DNA of 5,916 nt from a virus (lineage: Duplodnaviria; Heunggongvirae; Uroviricota; Caudoviricetes), in IMG/VR virus record IMGVR_UViG_2703718798_000018. One strand, written 5' to 3'. Of the stretch, positions 542-5,916 are shown piece by piece (positions within the stretch are counted from its first letter, which is position 1; each line of letters begins with the position of its first letter). The translations under genes were made by a program, and so were the position numbers. Below the pieces are notes generated by a model. The model did not search any database. It saw only the letters and a list, made by a program, of their open reading frames with translations, and had not been told where the DNA came from.

Positions 542-1537
542 TTATGGGCAAAATCTGGACAACTCCGCAACCGGATTGAACCTTACCGCGTCCTGGAGAT
601 AATCAGGTGCAAAGTGCGCATAGGTCATTGTCTGCTGAATTGTGCTGTGCCCTAAAATACGCTGAAGGGTAATAATGTTCCCTCCATTTATCATGAAATG
701 AGTTGCGAATGTGTGCCGTAAAACATGCACAGACTGACCGACTGGTAAATCAGGCCGCACAGTCCTTATTGCACTTCTGACTATCGCATAACTGGGGTTC
801 ATTAATCTTCCCGTCGCTTTGACTTTAATCAGAGATTCAAGATCTTTAGCTATAGGAATAACCCGCCGCGATCCATTCTTTGTCTCCATGAAAATAACCT
901 TCCCACCAATTATGTGTTCACCTTTAATATTGGCAACTTCACCCCAGCGCCCGCCTGTAGCCAGGCTTAACAATACAGCCTTAAGATTATCGCCAGATAA
1001 AAGTGCGGTTAGCCTGGGAATATCATCATGTGCAAGATAAGCCATTTCCGGCTGATTAATTGTTAGCTTGCGTATCTCGTGAAACGGGTTATCACCCACA
1101 AACTCTTCAACATCAATCAGCTTTTCAAAGAAACCGCTCATCATTGCACAATAACGATTTACCGTTGACTGCTTAATTCCGCGATTCATTAATTCAAGGC
1201 GATATCTGATAATATTTTTTCGGGTTAAGTGGTCACTTCTGTTAATACCAAGCTCTTGCATATCACGAAGAACCGCTTCAATTCTGACCCGATTCATCGC
1301 GCCATAACGATGATTCTTACCGTGGTACACCCACCACAGTTCCAGAAGATCGCTTAACGCTTTACGTTCAATAGGTTTTTCGACCCAGTCCTTATCGTGA
1401 TAATGCGTCAGAACATGGCGTTCATACATCGCCGCTTCACCACGGGTAGGAAATCGCCGCCGAAATCTTCTTCCTTCAGATCCAGCAGGCCGCACGTCCA
1501 CACAGTATTTGCCATCAGCGAGCTTCTTAATCGACAT
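542..1537 (-). CDS. int: Tyrosine site-specific integrase, P2 Int family (331 aa)
   Basis: N-terminus MSIKKLADGKYCVDVRPAGSEGRRFRRRF and C-terminus HVLRHTFATHFMINGGNIITLQRILGHSTIQQTMTYAHFAPDYLQDA closely resemble P2 Int as I recall it, including the R/H/R/Y catalytic region. Start chosen at the ATG at 1537 with a G-rich RBS; the ORF track's start at 1573 adds 12 residues with no homology support. Confidence 0.9.
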   Translation of the reverse strand: MSIKKLADGKYCVDVRPAGSEGRRFRRRFPTRGEAAMYERHVLTHYHDKDWVEKPIERKALSDLLELWWVYHGKNHRYGAMNRVRIEAVLRDMQELGINRSDHLTRKNIIRYRLELMNRGIKQSTVNRYCAMMSGFFEKLIDVEEFVGDNPFHEIRKLTINQPEMAYLAHDDIPRLTALLSGDNLKAVLLSLATGGRWGEVANIKGEHIIGGKVIFMETKNGSRRVIPIAKDLESLIKVKATGRLMNPSYAIVRSAIRTVRPDLPVGQSVHVLRHTFATHFMINGGNIITLQRILGHSTIQQTMTYAHFAPDYLQDAVRFNPVAELSRFCP

Positions 1538-1603
1538 AAGGAAGCCCCCCAATGAAAACATCATCTTGATCACAATTTTGAGAAATAAAGGCCAGATGGA
1601 CCG

Positions 1604-1903
1604 TTAACCAGTCTTCTTGCCGGAGTGGGATGATTCCGCTTCGCTTTGCCCAATGTGTGCGAGAGCCGGTACCACCTGCCCGGCCTTTGGTTCGACCTCA
1701 TCGAACAAAAACCAGTCACGGTATTTACGGAAACGAGCGTGCCGCAAAAGAAGGATCCCAAAATCAAGAGGCATCTTAGATTTCCCACTTTCATAGCCAT
1801 GATATGTATAGTAATTAATTCCAATTAAATCAGATAGTTCCTTCATTTTCATCCGTTCGGACTCTCTGATAAGTTTTAATTTCTCATTTTGCGGTATTGA
1901 CAT
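1604..1903 (-). CDS. C: Immunity repressor, P2 C-type (99 aa)
   Basis: Translation from the ATG at 1903 is 99 aa, the same length as P2 C. The C-terminal VPALAHIGQSEAESSHSGKKTG resembles the P2 C tail as I recall it. GGAGG lies 11 nt upstream on the minus strand. Position (upstream of int, same strand, divergent from cox) fits P2. Confidence 0.8.
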   Translation of the reverse strand: MSIPQNEKLKLIRESERMKMKELSDLIGINYYTYHGYESGKSKMPLDFGILLLRHARFRKYRDWFLFDEVEPKAGQVVPALAHIGQSEAESSHSGKKTG

Positions 1904-1932
1904 AATTTTTCTAACCTCCAATAATTTTTGTG
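1897..1932 (+). promoter_or_regulatory. Candidate early promoter Pe: -35 TTGACA (1897-1902), 17-nt spacer, -10 AATAAT (1920-1925)
   Basis: Hexamers read directly. The -35 is a perfect consensus and the -10 matches TATAAT at 5 of 6, with optimal spacing, and the orientation points into cox. The -35 overlaps the C start codon. The leftward C promoter could not be placed confidently. Confidence 0.5.
1902..1929. promoter_or_regulatory. Candidate repressor operator: perfect 9-bp direct repeat ATAATTTTT at 1902-1910 and 1921-1929 (19-bp period) bracketing the Pe spacer and -10
   Basis: Repeat read directly from the sequence. P2 C is known to bind directly repeated half-sites around the early promoter rather than a palindrome. 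Assigning these particular repeats as the operator is inference. Confidence 0.45.
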
Positions 1933-2010
1933 TATAGCAACACAAGAATAGTCGCAATTGGTTCTACATGGTCCCTATTCGAAAAAGGGGCCAATAACGG
2001 AGGATACCAG

Positions 2011-2436
2011 ATGCAAGAAGTCACTCAAAACGCGCCTGAATCGCCTGCCGAAACACAGTGCGATCAGTTGACAGATGCGCCAGAAACCGCACACCAAAAG
2101 ACCGGGCGCAAAGCCCCTGAACGCCAGGAAATCAGGCTTTCACAAAACCCTTCTCATCTCCTGTCAAAAGAAGGGTTTGCGATGTATATCGGCAAGACCG
2201 TTGACGCCATCGTGAGCATGGCAAAAGCAGGGAAATTACCCGCTGTGTACATGGCGGATCCCCTCAAACCTGGCGGAAACGCCGAACTTTACATCAACCG
2301 GAAAGCATGGGATGAAGCCTGCGATCGACTCACTGAAAACGCACCGCAAGAATGGCACGAATGGGAAAACCGACTTTTTTTATTTAAGCCAGCAGCTGGT
2401 TCACGGAATAAACGCATCAGTAAAAAAGCTGCGTGA
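2011..2436 (+). CDS. cox: Cox-like excisionase/early repressor with an N-terminal extension of about 50 aa (141 aa total)
   Basis: The core GFAMYIGKTVDAIVSMAKAGKLPAVYMADPLKPGGNAELYINRKAWDEA resembles P2 Cox (about 91 aa) as I recall it. Start chosen at the ATG at 2011 with GGAGG 6-7 nt upstream; the track's 1930 start is a GTG inside the promoter region. Confidence 0.6.
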   Translation: MQEVTQNAPESPAETQCDQLTDAPETAHQKTGRKAPERQEIRLSQNPSHLLSKEGFAMYIGKTVDAIVSMAKAGKLPAVYMADPLKPGGNAELYINRKAWDEACDRLTENAPQEWHEWENRLFLFKPAAGSRNKRISKKAA

Positions 2437-2466
2437 TATAGAACTGGCAATCATTGGAGGGGCAAG

Positions 2467-2697
2467 ATGATTAAACACACGGAAATCAGACAAAGAATAA
2501 AAATAAGCGACGACGCTTCAGTAATAATCTGTAATCAGAACTTAGATGCCATTGTTCGGGCTGGCAACGATTTGTATTTCCATTACCCGACCCATTGCAT
2601 CGTTGTGACATTTGAAACAGAAGAGTCCTTAAAAAATGCAATGGAGCAGACAGGATTTCAGAATGAAACAGTAATAAGAAAAGACAACTGGGCATAA
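2467..2697 (+). CDS. Hypothetical early protein (76 aa)
   Basis: ATG preceded by a GGAGGGG RBS; same strand as the early operon. No recognisable motif. Confidence 0.6.
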   Translation: MIKHTEIRQRIKISDDASVIICNQNLDAIVRAGNDLYFHYPTHCIVVTFETEESLKNAMEQTGFQNETVIRKDNWA

Positions 2698-2749
2698 ATG
2701 CCAATACACCGTTATTTCAATTCTTTTAACTTAAGCGGGTTTTTCCGAT

Positions 2750-3088
2750 ATGACACAGCGACGCAACTTCCGCACTGGCACAGAACACCACGCTAACCGT
2801 TTCTCAACCAGCGCATCACGCAGCAACTCGCACTACAGCCTGCAGGAAACGCACGCCACACCTGACGGGCATCTGGTTAAACAAACCGGTAAACACACCT
2901 GGCTGATTAATGATGCCGGAATTGTCATACACAGAGGCGCACGCAACCCGATTACCGGAAATACCTGTTACTCCCTGACTCGCGGAGATGAGCAGTTCGG
3001 GCAGGATTTCACCCTGCACGAAGCATTAAGAACGGCAGACCGATTAATCAGCGGTCGCAGTTTTCAGCACCCGGAACATCGCCGCTGA
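2750..3088 (+). CDS. Hypothetical early protein (112 aa); start uncertain
   Basis: Only in-frame ATG; the RBS is weak and the N-terminal 40 residues are low-complexity (S/T/R/H-rich). The C-terminal two thirds look more protein-like. Confidence 0.45.
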   Translation: MTQRRNFRTGTEHHANRFSTSASRSNSHYSLQETHATPDGHLVKQTGKHTWLINDAGIVIHRGARNPITGNTCYSLTRGDEQFGQDFTLHEALRTADRLISGRSFQHPEHRR

Positions 3089-3107
3089 TAAATAAAAGGA
3101 TTCAGCC

Positions 3108-3350
3108 ATGATCGAAGCCTACAAAATACTTATTAATAATGCGTTGCAGCGTTATCACTTCGAACTCGCAAACCGGGGTGTAACCCGGGACGAAGGACTT
3201 CGTAACTCACTGCGGGGCGCAATTATGGGACTGTATAACTGCGCACTGGGCAGCGATGACCGCGAAGCACTGGAAGAATTAAAAGTTATTGTGGCCGAAC
3301 TGTTTGAAGGTGAAATCGTTGAGCCTTATTTCACAGAGGTAGCAGCATGA
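3108..3350 (+). CDS. Hypothetical early protein (80 aa)
   Basis: ATG with an AAAGGA RBS; its stop overlaps the next start in an ATGA arrangement. Confidence 0.6.
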   Translation: MIEAYKILINNALQRYHFELANRGVTRDEGLRNSLRGAIMGLYNCALGSDDREALEELKVIVAELFEGEIVEPYFTEVAA

Positions 3351-3472
3351 GCGTATTTCTTTCATGGGTGATTCTGATTATTTCCGTGCTTATGGCGATT
3401 GGCATTATGCGAATTATCGAAGCGCTGAAAAATATCGAATCTTTATTTACTGGCGAAGAACGCCGTAAATAA
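3347..3472 (+). CDS. Small hydrophobic peptide (41 aa: MSVFLSWVILIISVLMAIGIMRIIEALKNIESLFTGEERRK), predicted single transmembrane helix; not in the supplied ORF track
   Basis: Translated by hand. The ATG at 3347-3349 overlaps the TGA stop (3348-3350) of the upstream ORF, giving ATGA coupling. A 20-residue hydrophobic stretch is followed by a charged tail; stop is TAA at 3470-3472. Confidence 0.45.
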   Translation: MSVFLSWVILIISVLMAIGIMRIIEALKNIESLFTGEERRK

Positions 3473-3551
3473 ATAACCAACCGGACAGAAAACATTAAAA
3501 CCATCCGCATCTGCGGAGGGCTTCACTCAATCCAGAAACGGAGAAACAGCT

Positions 3552-3830
3552 ATGAGCACCAATACACCTACAGAAATAAACAAACTATTTACCGACCCGG
3601 CGCATATTGAATTGACGCAAAAAACGCTGACTGAAATAACCAATGTACTGGATGAAAGAATATCAGAAATAGATAAAGACAAGCATTTTGCCACCTACAT
3701 GGCCCTGCAAATGCAAAGCATGGCAATGGTGACAGCAAAACAGACCATCAGTGAACTCTATATGAAAAACCTGCGCCTCGAGCGCGAACTGGCAGAACTC
3801 CGGGCACAGTCCGGCCAGTTTTCAGCGTGA
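3552..3830 (+). CDS. Hypothetical early protein (92 aa) with a coiled-coil-like C-terminus
   Basis: ATG with a GGAG RBS; the C-terminus LRLERELAELRAQ has a heptad-like pattern. Confidence 0.6.
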   Translation: MSTNTPTEINKLFTDPAHIELTQKTLTEITNVLDERISEIDKDKHFATYMALQMQSMAMVTAKQTISELYMKNLRLERELAELRAQSGQFSA

Positions 3831-3841
3831 GGGGCAGGACG

Positions 3842-4093
3842 ATGAACAGCATATTTACCGCCACAAGACGAACCCTGCTGACGCATTTCACCGATGCCGC
3901 AGGCCGCGAGTTCATGGTGGAAAGTTATTTGATCACAACGACCACGCCGTGCCCGTCAGACGCTGATTATCTCTACATCCATCTGGCTGACGGCACACAA
4001 ATCACCGCGATTGCCAGTACCGTTCGCGAAGTAATGACCATCAGAGGGGCATGGAAATCAGAAACACAAGCCCACGGAGAGCTGCGGCCATGA
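3842..4093 (+). CDS. Hypothetical early protein (83 aa from ATG 3842; alternatively 88 aa from GTG 3827 overlapping the upstream stop)
   Basis: ATG at 3842 preceded by GGGGCAGGAC. The GTG at 3827-3829 overlaps the upstream TGA (3828-3830), so coupling from either start is possible. Confidence 0.55.
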   Translation: MNSIFTATRRTLLTHFTDAAGREFMVESYLITTTTPCPSDADYLYIHLADGTQITAIASTVREVMTIRGAWKSETQAHGELRP

Positions 4094-4302
4094 TCAGCAA
4101 GTACACCACCAACGCACGTAAACCCGGTAAAGACGCACGCCACCACATCGCCGTACTCCGCAATCTGTTACTGGAGGAAATCGACGACTTCACGGCGACG
4201 CTGAGCGGTCCGGGCGCACCAGTAACACCAGGTGAGATCCACCGGGACCTTAAACGCCGTATTGAAAACGCCATTGATTACACCCTGAACCCGACCGAAT
4301 AA
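4090..4302 (+). CDS. Hypothetical early protein (70 aa from ATG 4090; alternatively 83 aa from ATG 4051)
   Basis: ATG 4090-4092 overlaps the upstream TGA 4091-4093 (ATGA coupling) with GGAGAG about 9 nt upstream. The 4051 start would overlap the upstream gene by 43 nt. Confidence 0.55.
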   Translation: MISKYTTNARKPGKDARHHIAVLRNLLLEEIDDFTATLSGPGAPVTPGEIHRDLKRRIENAIDYTLNPTE

Positions 4303-4328
4303 CCGGAACAGTAACGGAGGTTATCGCG

Positions 4329-4883
4329 ATGAGACTTACACCAATGGGAACGCCAAGCAAAGCTCCGGCACATGTAAAGCCGTGGACACAACAGGAAGAT
4401 CGGTTACTCATCTCGCTTTATCAGGAACACAACACACATCAGTTCGCCGAACGAATTCAGCGAACCCGTAAAGCAGTTATGCACCGGATTCGTTTTTTAC
4501 GTAATCGTGGGCTGATTGGCCGCAAGAGAAAAGCACCACTGAGTACAGAAGTCATAGCCTTTCTTATTAAAAACCGTCATGTAAAAACCGCACAGGAAAT
4601 GGCTCTGGAAGCGGGATGCAGTGAGTGCACAGTGAGGTACACACTGCGTAAACGGGGTTACAACCTGCAAAAATGCGGTGAGAACCACCATTGCGCCAGA
4701 TACAGCGATCATCTGGTTGAGCTGGTCACGGAGCTACGCGACATACACAACATGACGTTCTGCATGATCGCTGAACACATCAACAGCACGACACAAATGC
4801 ACATTAACGACGATACGGCGTTTCATCTCTACCACCGCCGCACCGCAACTGACGCAGTGCTCCGTGAACTGTTACCGGGCTGA
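4329..4883 (+). CDS. Hypothetical protein (184 aa) with a basic helix-rich N-terminal half and a Cys/His cluster; putative DNA-binding regulator
   Basis: GGAGG sits 8 nt upstream of the ATG. The sequence contains C-x2-C, then 15 residues, then C-x5-C (CSEC...CGENHHC). The DNA-binding assignment is based on composition and motif only. Confidence 0.65.
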   Translation: MRLTPMGTPSKAPAHVKPWTQQEDRLLISLYQEHNTHQFAERIQRTRKAVMHRIRFLRNRGLIGRKRKAPLSTEVIAFLIKNRHVKTAQEMALEAGCSECTVRYTLRKRGYNLQKCGENHHCARYSDHLVELVTELRDIHNMTFCMIAEHINSTTQMHINDDTAFHLYHRRTATDAVLRELLPG

Positions 4884-5003
4884 GTGATCATCATGCACAC
4901 ACAAAAAAACCGCTTGCCAGCGTTCGCCTGGTCGGGTTACAGTTTTCCCGCACCTCATAAAACGGGTGCCGGGATTTCCACCCCGCCGATAACCAAAGCG
5001 CAC

Positions 5004-5024
5004 AACCGCGCCAGCGGTTTTTTT
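5004..5024 (+). terminator. Candidate intrinsic terminator ending the cox-side operon
   Basis: AACCGC-GCCA-GCGGTT hairpin (6 bp, 4-nt loop) immediately followed by a run of 7 T (5018-5024), about 120 nt downstream of the 184-aa ORF stop. Confidence 0.5.
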
Positions 5025-5065
5025 GTGCGTACTGTATTGCCACGTCTTTTTCGCGTCAGAATTAT

Positions 5066-5141
5066 GGCGGGGCGTACGGGGCCGACTTCGGTCGGGCCGG
5101 GTTCTTTGGTTACCGGTTGTGGAAACCCTGTACGCCTCGCC
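5066..5141 (+). ncRNA. Candidate structured RNA element (about 76 nt): 16-bp closing helix with two G-U wobbles, enclosing a UUCG-capped hairpin and a second short hairpin
   Basis: 5066-5081 (GGCGGGGCGTACGGGG) pairs with 5126-5141 (CCCTGTACGCCTCGCC): 14 Watson-Crick pairs plus 2 G-U, possible only in a plus-strand transcript. Inside are CCGAC-UUCG-GUCGG (5082-5095) and CCGG-N12-CCGG (5097-5116). A possible promoter TTGCCA (5037-5042), 17-nt spacer, AATTAT (5060-5065) lies just upstream. Neither reading frame across it looks protein-like. Prediction only. Confidence 0.3.
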
Positions 5142-5167
5142 ACCCCGAGTTTTCCACCTCTGGATGG

Positions 5168-5184
5168 TGAGTTTTCAAAATTCA
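5168..5184. promoter_or_regulatory. Near-palindrome TGAGTTTTCAAAATTCA upstream of the 75-aa gene; candidate operator or promoter element
   Basis: 8-bp arms with one mismatch around a central C. GAGTTTTC also occurs as a direct repeat at 5147-5154 and 5170-5177. It sits 20-35 nt upstream of the AAGAGG RBS of the ORF at 5204. Confidence 0.3.
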
Positions 5185-5203
5185 CAACCAAAGAGGCCAC
5201 ACC

Positions 5204-5431
5204 ATGGCAAACCGCAAACAACAGCGCGCCCGCGCTGAGCGTCTTCACATCCGGACTGAAATCAACCGCAGACTCCATCGGGCTGCATCTGTCTCCTTCA
5301 TCATGCAGTCAAACGTATTACACCGACTTAACGACGGTATCGCTGCCGGGTATTACGCGGCAGTCTTCAGCTATCTGGCCGAAGACCTGGCAGAACTGCA
5401 AGACCTTATCAACCAGCAACACCACCACTAA
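5204..5431 (+). CDS. Hypothetical small protein (75 aa) with a highly basic N-terminus and an acidic C-terminus ending QQHHH
   Basis: ATG with AAGAGG 7 nt upstream; the N-terminus MANRKQQRARAERLHIRTEINRRLHR is strongly basic (possible nucleic-acid binding). Confidence 0.55.
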   Translation: MANRKQQRARAERLHIRTEINRRLHRAASVSFIMQSNVLHRLNDGIAAGYYAAVFSYLAEDLAELQDLINQQHHH

Positions 5432-5499: not shown

Positions 5500-5916
5500 A
5501 TGAAGAACGTTAAGGGACTTTCAGATATTCAGGATTTTTTTAACTGGATGTGGGCAGTGGATCCCCGGCTGGCTTCCCGCCTGAACGACTGGCACGACTA
5601 TTACCGCCGCGCCTGTAAACGGGCCGCCAGACGCGTCACCACATACGGGGATTTCTCCTTCACCGTTGACGACCGTTACCGCGTGGACGTGAAAGGTGAT
5701 GGTGATGGTTTTGGTTTATTTCACATCAACGGAACCGACAGCACCGCCATCAGCTGGTCGTCGTCAGAGATGACGCTTGTTCTGGAAATGACAACGCACA
5801 GCGTGGCCATGAAAGGCATATACACCGCAGAAGACTTTATCGGTGAATACCAGCGCCTTCTCGTGCTGTACCGCGCGGCGTTTCAGGCGGCAACTGCCGG
5901 GGAGTGCGACGCATGA
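5500..5916 (+). CDS. Hypothetical protein (138 aa); complete, stop at 5914-5916
   Basis: ATG with GGAGG 7 nt upstream; no motif recognised. Confidence 0.6.
   Translation: MKNVKGLSDIQDFFNWMWAVDPRLASRLNDWHDYYRRACKRAARRVTTYGDFSFTVDDRYRVDVKGDGDGFGLFHINGTDSTAISWSSSEMTLVLEMTTHSVAMKGIYTAEDFIGEYQRLLVLYRAAFQAATAGECDA

Follow-up and report, generated by a model that had tools for sequence, protein, structure and literature searches.

Seven small genes between cox and A in a P88-like prophage of Escherichia coli, with an invariant core and variable cargo

In the P2 family, a run of small early genes is situated between cox or apl and the replication gene A; it comprises orf78, B and orf80-83 in P2, and cII, fil, dhr and CP79-84 in 186. 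These genes are joined by -1 and -4 stop/start junctions and are mostly non-essential. In the case of P2, the promoter Pe overlaps the start of the C repressor gene, and gpB is the helicase-loading protein required for lagging-strand synthesis. In the case of 186, fil blocks division and dhr blocks replication, both being listed as host-directed early genes, and the record states that translation of A requires translation to the end of orf84. In P88, the genes after cox include gp04 (DUF4761), gp06 (DUF4754), a gp07 peptide overlapping gp06 by ATGA, gp08 and gp10, together with gp05, gp09 (winged HTH), gp11 and gp12 (membrane protein plus SPFH); then come the genes of a derepression protein and of endonuclease A, with a conserved ORF between them. 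P88 can be induced with mitomycin (PMC5285337). Furthermore, the P2-like phages carry a defence hotspot (old, tin, retrons and others) between gpA and gpQ (Rousset et al. 2022, PMC9122126).

The window, the whole stretch of 5,916 nucleotides that was analysed, is the left end of an E. coli P88-like (Xuanwuvirus, Peduoviridae, P2-family) prophage, and this end adjoins chpS. In the closest complete genome, with 97.6% identity to the window, the gene for the replication endonuclease A begins at the final four bases of the window and shares the strand of the array; P2-type genes for ogr, portal, terminase, scaffold, capsid and gpM come after it. Replication and morphogenesis genes in that genome lie further right, where an earlier note on this DNA had expected them. 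The arrangement of int, repressor, Pe-like site and cox matches the annotated P2 record, in agreement with that note's proposal of a temperate P2-family early operon, and its placing of cox ahead of the array is confirmed by a Pfam match (Table 1). The cox gene has a pN/pS of 0.13-0.16. The DNA identity to P88 is approximately 72-73% over 24% of the block, a value derived from 5.9 kb, whereas the ICTV genus threshold (~70%) is genome-wide.

Ahead of the array, the plus strand has a single strong promoter-like site, the Pe-like one; like Pe of P2, it overlaps the beginning of the divergently oriented C gene. No plus-strand promoter-like or terminator-like site was found in a sequence scan of positions 1925-4914. 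The first plus-strand terminator-like site after Pe belongs to the IsrK-like sRNA (5004-5019, with a T run), and it is thus the probable 3' limit of the array transcript or an attenuation point. For C4 RNA targets, an RNAduplex scan is dominated by GC-rich windows, and plain 9-nt loop complementarity was used in its place.

Table 1. Features of the window, with strand, product length and principal matches
Feature	Position	Strand	Length	Match or motif
int	542-1573	-		
C-type HTH repressor	1604-1903	-		
Pe-like sigma-70 promoter	1897-1925	+		TTGACA-17-AATAAT, 11/12 match
cox, early operon gene 1	2011-2436	+		PF10743, 1.1e-27; phrog_1831; RefSeq Cox family protein
O1	2467-2697	+	76 aa	
O2	2750-3088	+	112 aa	DUF4761 (PF15958), 162.3 bits vs cut-off 27; residues 7-105 on profile positions 1-99 of 105
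O3	3108-3350	+	80 aa	DUF4754 (PF15946), 1.3e-15, 57.9 bits vs cut-off 27; residues 3-74 on profile 3-74 of 80; phrog_2549
O4	3347-3472	+	41 aa	
O5	3552-3830	+	92 aa	
O6	3842-4093	+	83 aa (88 aa with GTG 3827 start)	
O7	4090-4302	+	70 aa	
O8, next operon gene	4329-4883	+	184 aa	phrog_323 'transcriptional regulator', 9e-30
IsrK-like sRNA	4950-5024	+		Rfam RF01394, 64.3 bits vs gathering score 50

Seven same-strand ORFs, O1 to O7, with sizes from 41 to 112 aa, fill positions 2467-4302; the earlier note gave this size range correctly and counted six. Its description of dense one-strand packing after cox holds, with 1675 of the 1836 nt (91%) coding and a greedy same-strand ORF cover of 0.92, a value reached by none of 1000 first-order Markov resamples (0.43 ± 0.13, maximum 0.88). 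Three stop/start overlaps had been listed. The ATGA overlaps at 3347 (O3/O4) and 4090 (O6/O7) are present, and the former is kept at all related loci examined, with an invariant GCATGAG junction and the same overlap between gp07 and gp06 in P88. The third, at 3827/3842, is probably not an overlap. A GTGA exists at 3827 (O5 stop and alternative O6 start), but ATG 3842 appears the better-supported O6 start: it is the RefSeq-annotated start in four complete genomes, conservation among the O6 relatives begins only at MNSIF/MHNIF, and AGGA and GAGGGG motifs lie upstream of it. With this start, the O5/O6 junction is more likely an 11-nt spacer. Shine-Dalgarno motifs precede every ORF but O2, including a canonical GGAGG 5 nt upstream of the O1 ATG. 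The lack of a recognisable Shine-Dalgarno site at O2 counts against the picture of a coupled operon.

O1 to O7 are real genes in an operon context, and they divide into core and cargo. The gene-content comparison proposed in the earlier note was carried out by tblastn in 82 unique related prophage regions. Four genes form the lineage core, O2 (DUF4761), O3 (DUF4754), O4 and O6, and these co-occur with A in 80-82 of the 82 regions (O3 in 81, O4 in 80). O7 is a frequent accessory gene (41/82), and O1 and O5 are rare cargo (6/82 and 9/82, respectively). Four of the seven ORFs thus constitute an invariant P88-like backbone and are not cargo. Meanwhile, the distance from DUF4761 to A ranges from 1977 to 5319 bp across the regions, corresponding to a cox-to-A block of approximately 2.0-5.3 kb. 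For O2, O3 and O4, pN/pS is 0.12-0.40 at a pS of 0.3-0.6, with 0.12 for O3 and 0.33-0.40 for O4. Among close relatives, O5, O6 and O7 give values from 0 to 0.7, which derive from at most 10 changes and are too few for meaning; at the protein level, O6 and O7 remain conserved between subtypes with 24-48% identity.

Compared with P88, the order after cox is the same, with matches to gp04 (DUF4761, 8e-49), gp06 (DUF4754, 7e-16), gp07 (2e-15), gp08 (1e-5) and gp10 (2e-10). There are also differences: O3 and O6 are of another subtype than their P88 counterparts (41% and ~34% identical), and gp05, gp09, gp11 and gp12 are absent from the window, which has O1, O5 and a 184-aa Myb-like protein (O8) in their place. 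The variable slot after the membrane peptide encoded by O4, occupied by O5 in the window, holds in sister prophages an orphan Dam methyltransferase (PADLOC oMTase, 1e-75) and a DEDDh exonuclease. Like the gpA-gpQ hotspot (PMC9122126), the array is a cargo region that varies strongly among P2-family prophages and is prone to recombination. However, the hotspot is expressed in the lysogen, often from the opposite strand, and holds recognised defence systems, whereas the array occupies the interval from cox to A, within the repressed early lytic operon, and its cargo consists of small non-enzymatic ORFs (in sister phages, the methylase and the exonuclease).

Among the core products, O2 is modelled with a basic disordered N-terminus (pI 10.3), a six-strand β-sheet and a conserved C-terminal helix (GQDFTLxEALRTxDRL). 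For this confident sheet-plus-helix model neither the PDB nor BFVD offers a relative, and the fold search with both structure models built returns no significant fold relatives. All DUF4761 matches in 50,697 phage records belong to P88-like phages, and a scan of genome contigs with the DUF4761 alignment profile reaches three species-representative genomes only. A literature search on DUF4761 and DUF4754 found nothing. O3 is acidic (pI 4.6) and looks helical by its sequence; a word-indexed homologue search yields near-identical sequences only, and a genome-contig scan with the single O3 sequence gives no match. A PDB profile match of O3 to designed helical repeat proteins (3e-8) reflects idealised-helix composition, not homology. 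O4 is a predicted single-pass membrane peptide, with Kyte-Doolittle 19-residue windows of 2.3-2.7 at the N-terminus and a P88 counterpart, gp07, annotated 'membrane protein'; it is putatively coupled in translation to O3 via the ATGA overlap. At locus L001, O3 is 43% and O4 97% identical to the window's copies, so the two recombine independently, which counts against a tightly co-adapted O3-O4 complex. O6 is a small all-beta protein that represents a diverged subtype within the gp08 family of P88. A sub-threshold match of O6 to an SDR model is noise.

O7 shares a conserved C-terminal domain of approximately 45 aa (EIxDFxAxLxxPGxPxTP...) with P88 gp10, which RefSeq names 'ead/Ea22-like' and which has a weak match to PF13935; O7 also matches phrog_4144 (1e-10). 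O7 itself has no match to the lambdoid Ead/Ea22-like family (PF13935) at E ≤ 1 and lacks the N-terminal helical part; three of eight longer O7 relatives match PF13935 (7e-4). O5, read by eye, looks like a helical coiled coil. It has no tblastn match in the 50,697 phage records and belongs to no Pfam, PHROG or NCBIfam family; its weak PADLOC matches are to the candidate defence-system proteins PDC-M64B (3.7e-4) and PDC-M64C (3e-3), and a literature search on PDC-M64 found nothing. Its 4 synonymous and 6 nonsynonymous changes represent too little divergence to test selection. O8, which lies beyond the block described by the earlier note, is a predicted basic Myb/SANT-like HTH DNA-binding protein; its Myb and HTH Pfam matches are sub-threshold, and it is cargo, found in 15 of the 82 regions.

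The best explanation of the block is that it forms the accessory, promoter-proximal section of a P88-like prophage's early lytic operon, encoding Pe-driven, coupled, non-enzymatic early proteins, and we assign a probability of roughly 0.8 to this reading. Once the C repressor is inactivated, the Pe-like promoter would fire, and a single mRNA spanning cox, O1 to O7 and O8 would probably be produced. Short spacers with Shine-Dalgarno sites and the two ATGA overlaps may couple the translation of neighbouring genes, by analogy with P2 and 186. Since the products of O1 to O7 are small, carry no catalytic motif and occur in this lineage alone, they most likely bind macromolecules of the phage or the host at an early stage of lytic growth, and such binding might serve regulation, replication support or host takeover. 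O1 and O5 are rare cassettes in recombination-prone slots. By position and strand, O1 to O7 are most likely counterparts, not homologues, of P2 orf78-83 and 186 fil/dhr. Searches with phmmer --max against the P2 and 186 early proteins give nothing significant (best E 0.07), none of the seven corresponds to a well-characterised early protein of P2 or 186, and the window has no DksA-like zinc finger, DUF2732, DUF5405 or B homologue.

Scans of O1 to O7 against Pfam, PHROGs and NCBIfam find only DUF or unknown-function families and no enzymatic signature. Neither these scans nor profile searches of solved structures reveal a catalytic motif, as the earlier note had stated; its description of the block as being of unknown function also stands in that no ORF has a characterised homologue, but O2 and O3 are established Pfam DUF families. 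Within this early-operon reading, it is conceivable, at well below even odds, that one or more of the lineage-core products represents a new type of effector, acting early in host takeover or counter-defence and restricted to the P88-like phages of Escherichia, Salmonella and Citrobacter. DUF4761, or DUF4754 together with the 41-aa membrane peptide to which it is invariantly coupled by overlap, may tentatively be put forward as the effector candidates. In that event the membrane peptide could, as a similarly tentative suggestion, target an inner-membrane host process, either division or a membrane-bound defence sensor.

The earlier note's lead, host takeover or anti-defence, stays the hypothesis that the note declared it to be. 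An anti-defence arsenal, in which at least one small early protein inhibits a host defence system such as restriction-modification, abortive infection or RecBCD, and is made first so as to shield the incoming or induced genome, is unlikely. The promoter-proximal location of the genes in the early operon and their small, non-enzymatic products are consistent with such an arsenal, and O1 and O5 show the rare, patchy and lineage-limited occurrence that counter-defence cargo often has. Simultaneously, the Dam-type methyltransferase and DEDDh exonuclease of the sister prophages suggest that the slot recruits nucleic-acid-protection functions. However, sequence and profile searches of solved structures, many anti-defence proteins among them, produce no match, and nothing else in the searches points to anti-defence; a PADLOC-DB 2.0 scan gives no defence-system match besides the weak ones of O5. 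In addition, the invariant backbone of four ORFs is not patchy.

P88-like phages have no homologue of P2 gpB, but it is likewise improbable that DUF4761, DUF4754 or the gp08-like protein replaces gpB or otherwise assists the A nickase. No P2 B match exists among the window proteins, yet a P2-type A endonuclease lies downstream on the same strand; the four core genes accompany A almost throughout the regions compared, and the basic disordered tail predicted for DUF4761 could bind nucleic acid. On the other side, the annotated early genes of 186 also include no B homologue, so a B-like function need not exist, and the small early ORFs of 186 are annotated as not essential. Furthermore, O6 is acidic (pI 5.8), the structural matches fall below the usual significance, and Pfam and NCBIfam searches show no sequence similarity to loader or primase-associated families.

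A further alternative to the early-operon reading is that part of the array is non-coding, with O1 a conserved regulatory or non-coding spacer or a decaying remnant and the O5 to O7 frames persisting only through youth; this is very unlikely. O1 is a lineage-restricted ORFan. It occurs in 4 of 5426 complete E. coli genomes, in each case immediately after a cox gene, where it fills the slot ahead of DUF4761, and PGAP leaves three of these four copies unannotated. An exhaustive HMMER search of 1.84e9 representatives finds only its own 90% cluster and one spurious repeat match. That outside match (E 6e-5), to an 1828-aa Ig-like repeat protein over 38 residues, is compositional, and a Methyltransf_23 match of O1 (16 bits against a cut-off of 27) is noise. 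The missing annotation and the absence of wider homologues fit a non-coding O1, and O5 and O6 have pN/pS values of 0.4-0.7 or undefined in near-identical copies. Nevertheless, O1 has its GGAGG, and its frame stays open in a prophage that sits elsewhere in the chromosome and carries another integrase and another cox. It is more conserved than the flanking spacer, with 3 of 231 nt differing from the copy at locus L020 against 6 of 52 nt in the adjoining spacer. Compared with locus L019, half of the substitutions (7/14) fall at third codon positions, with a pN/pS of 0.24. Moreover, O5 relatives at 47% identity retain the reading frame, O6 and O7 keep their protein-level conservation across deeply diverged subtypes, and the O6 model has a pLDDT of ~97 in its core. 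Least likely of all is that the genes are lysogen-expressed morons, conversion or defence cargo like P2 old and tin: the low GC of O1 and O4 (38% vs 45-55% in neighbouring genes) and the weak O5 match to PDC-M64B are compatible with this, but the genes follow cox directly on the strand of the early operon and have no promoter-like or terminator-like sites of their own, the P2-like hotspot lies elsewhere, PADLOC is otherwise empty, and the products are much smaller than typical defence effectors.

As part of a known phage family, the block is ordinary and already annotated, and it will not surprise specialists. P88-like prophages are common in E. coli, and exact copies of O4, O5 and O7 are each found on 1000 or more contigs of the protein collection. 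With the four invariant genes set apart from the swappable cassettes, genetic work has a short, ranked set of candidates. Functions that lytic development needs or profits from are best sought among the core genes, and accessory or counter-defence cargo in the two slots, one behind cox and one behind the membrane peptide.

The element is a P2-family prophage of P88-like type, represented by its left end and adjoining chpSB, because the closest complete E. coli genome (97.6% identity to the window) carries the ogr, portal, terminase, scaffold, P2-family capsid, and gpM genes beyond the replication endonuclease gene A, and the phage-database matches are limited to P88-like phages (genus Xuanwuvirus, family Peduoviridae). 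In this genome, A begins at the final four bases of the window, and the replication and morphogenesis genes lie further right, as the earlier note had expected. At the other end, chpB falls outside the window edge, next to chpS. In several genomes, the same prophage is situated directly after ppa, without chpSB, and the similarity to the window starts at 302. Since chpS ends at 258 and these chpSB-less genomes align from 302, attL, which marks the left edge of the prophage, is expected near 259–302. Two terminator-like hairpins are located back to back between chpS and int (434–480), at 456–480 on the + strand and at 453–434 on the − strand.

Features of the window and occurrence of the gene families in 82 related prophage regions
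Feature	Coordinates	Strand	Length, score or basis	Class	Regions
chpS antitoxin	1–258	−	ORF listing and family scans		
Tyrosine integrase (int)	542–1573	−	ORF listing and family scans		
HTH repressor	1604–1903/1957	−	ORF listing and family scans		
Strong promoter-like site (Pe-like)	1897–1925	+	TTGACA-17-AATAAT		
cox	2011–2436	+	PF10743, 1e-27		
O1	2467–2697	+	76 aa	rare	6/82
O2 (DUF4761, anchor)	2750–3088	+	112 aa	backbone	82/82
O3 (DUF4754)	3108–3350	+	80 aa	backbone	81/82
O4 (membrane peptide)	3347–3472	+	41 aa	backbone	80/82
O5	3552–3830	+	92 aa	rare	9/82
O6 (gp08-like)	3842–4093	+	83 aa	backbone	80/82
O7	4090–4302	+	70 aa	frequent	41/82
O8 (Myb/SANT-like)	4329–4883	+		rare	15/82
IsrK-like sRNA	4950–5024	+	64 bits		
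C4 antisense RNA	5060–5147	+	83 bits		
"Derepression protein" gene	5204–5431	+	75 aa	frequent	54/82
ORF preceding A	5500–5916	+	138 aa	backbone	82/82
P88 gp05-like				frequent	62/82
Winged HTH				frequent	47/82
TM67 + SPFH				rare	10/82

The small-ORF array begins at 2467 and contains seven ORFs (O1–O7), one more than the earlier note had counted. The dense packing on one strand holds, with the seven ORFs occupying 91% of the interval; the one-strand ORF cover is 0.92, against 0.43 ± 0.13 expected and a maximum of 0.88 in 1000 resamples. Both ATGA overlaps, at 3347 and at 4090, are genuine. At the third proposed overlap (3827/3842), a GTGA at 3827 offers a possible start, but a separation of 11 nt between O5 and O6 is more likely, because RefSeq places the O6 start at ATG 3842 in four genomes and the conservation among O6 relatives begins at this methionine, with nothing conserved before it. 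A Shine-Dalgarno motif precedes O1 and O3–O7, and none was seen before O2. P2 and 186 contain the same −1 and −4 junctions, and genes joined this tightly are usual in the phage family.

The gene-content comparison proposed earlier separates a conserved core from variable cargo. Approximately 100 related loci were gathered, and the presence of each family was scored by tblastn in the 82 unique regions containing both DUF4761 and A, in which DUF4761 and A lie 1977–5319 bp apart. Every locus keeps the ATGA junction that joins DUF4754 to the membrane peptide. Mosaic breakpoints are sharp: one falls at this overlapping pair between the window (3108–3472) and the close relative L001 (15364–15728), where O3 is 43% and the overlapping O4 97% identical. 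The slot after the membrane peptide is occupied in sister prophages by a DEDDh exonuclease, a ParE-like protein, an orphan Dam methyltransferase, and a DUF4406 protein. In L014, a sister prophage likewise integrated at the chpS site, this larger cassette is located at 8108–11400, and a reverse-strand 145-aa ORF (6519–6956) occupies the cox–DUF4761 slot. P88-like early genes also appear under Firmicutes labels, in a Vagococcus sp. WN89Y contig (L023) and a 451-bp Enterococcus faecalis contig (P0249), most likely through assembly contamination by enterobacterial DNA.

Where divergence suffices, purifying selection is observed, with pN/pS of approximately 0.29 in O2, 0.12 in O3, and 0.33–0.40 in O4, compared with 0.13–0.16 in cox. 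O6 and O7 show few substitutions among close copies and are kept as proteins across subtypes at 24–48% identity; the O6 structure model is confident (pLDDT ~97, residues 10–66). Relatives of O5 at 47% identity preserve the frame. O1 presents the weakest case of the seven: among four complete genomes PGAP leaves it unannotated in three, and an exhaustive search over 1.84 billion representatives returned only its own cluster. In its favour, it possesses a canonical GGAGG upstream, its frame is intact in a prophage that lies at another chromosomal site and has a different integrase and cox, third codon positions account for half of its substitutions, and it is far more conserved than the spacer beside it (3/231 versus 6/52 differences).

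None of the seven ORFs matches an early protein of P2 or 186, so the array does not consist of characterised P2 early proteins, the outcome against which the earlier note had set its proposal. Pfam assigns DUF4761 and DUF4754 and no other family, PHROGs gives unknown-function families only, and NCBIfam gives no match; the sole PADLOC match is a weak one of the coiled-coil-like O5 to a candidate system. Sequence or profile searches of O1, O2, O3, O6, and O7 against all PDB chains yielded no credible match, and the absence of a recognisable catalytic motif is borne out. O4 contains a predicted N-terminal transmembrane helix (Kyte-Doolittle 2.3–2.7), the residues of which are strongly conserved. 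The C-terminal domain of O7 is common to P88 gp10, annotated as Ead/Ea22-like, and O7 itself does not match the corresponding Pfam family.

Because the scan shows the + strand free of promoter-like and terminator-like sites from the Pe-like promoter to the IsrK terminator (~5004–5024), the array is most likely co-transcribed with cox, and derepression would yield one transcript carrying both. From their position, size, and lack of catalytic motifs, O1–O7 are most readily interpreted as non-enzymatic early accessory proteins that would bind host or phage components. The genes that 186 carries at this position include fil, which blocks division, and dhr, which blocks host replication. P2-like phages have their characterised defence hotspot between gpA and gpQ, not at the array (PMC9122126).

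To the right of the array (4914–5431), the IsrK, C4, and derepression genes form a module of the sRNA and antirepressor type, with a separate promoter-like site for each sRNA (4914–4943 and 5037–5065). The C4 loop UCUUUGGUU (5103–5111) is exactly complementary to AACCAAAGA at 5186–5194, directly next to the Shine-Dalgarno site of the derepression gene, and a one-mismatch copy lies inside IsrK (4991–4999). The arrangement resembles the c4/ant immunity logic of P1. It also resembles the isrK–anrP module of Gifsy-1 (PMC4825925), and the mitomycin inducibility of P88 (PMC5285337) is consistent with a module of the antirepressor type. RefSeq records an incomplete "ash family protein" pseudogene at ~4890–5277 (L001 17138–17525), exactly where Rfam places IsrK and C4; a protein model has probably matched RNA genes here, and a decayed gene is the less likely reading. 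The 138-aa ORF has no family match, and an ATGA overlap links its end to the A start. This recalls 186, whose record states that A translation requires translation through the end of orf84. The ORF is a candidate for a replication accessory or coupling role.

The array is real, yet an ordinary feature of known architecture, and existing annotations already list its gene families as DUFs or hypothetical proteins. What is new here is the partition into core and cargo, together with the recognition of O1 as a lineage-restricted ORFan.
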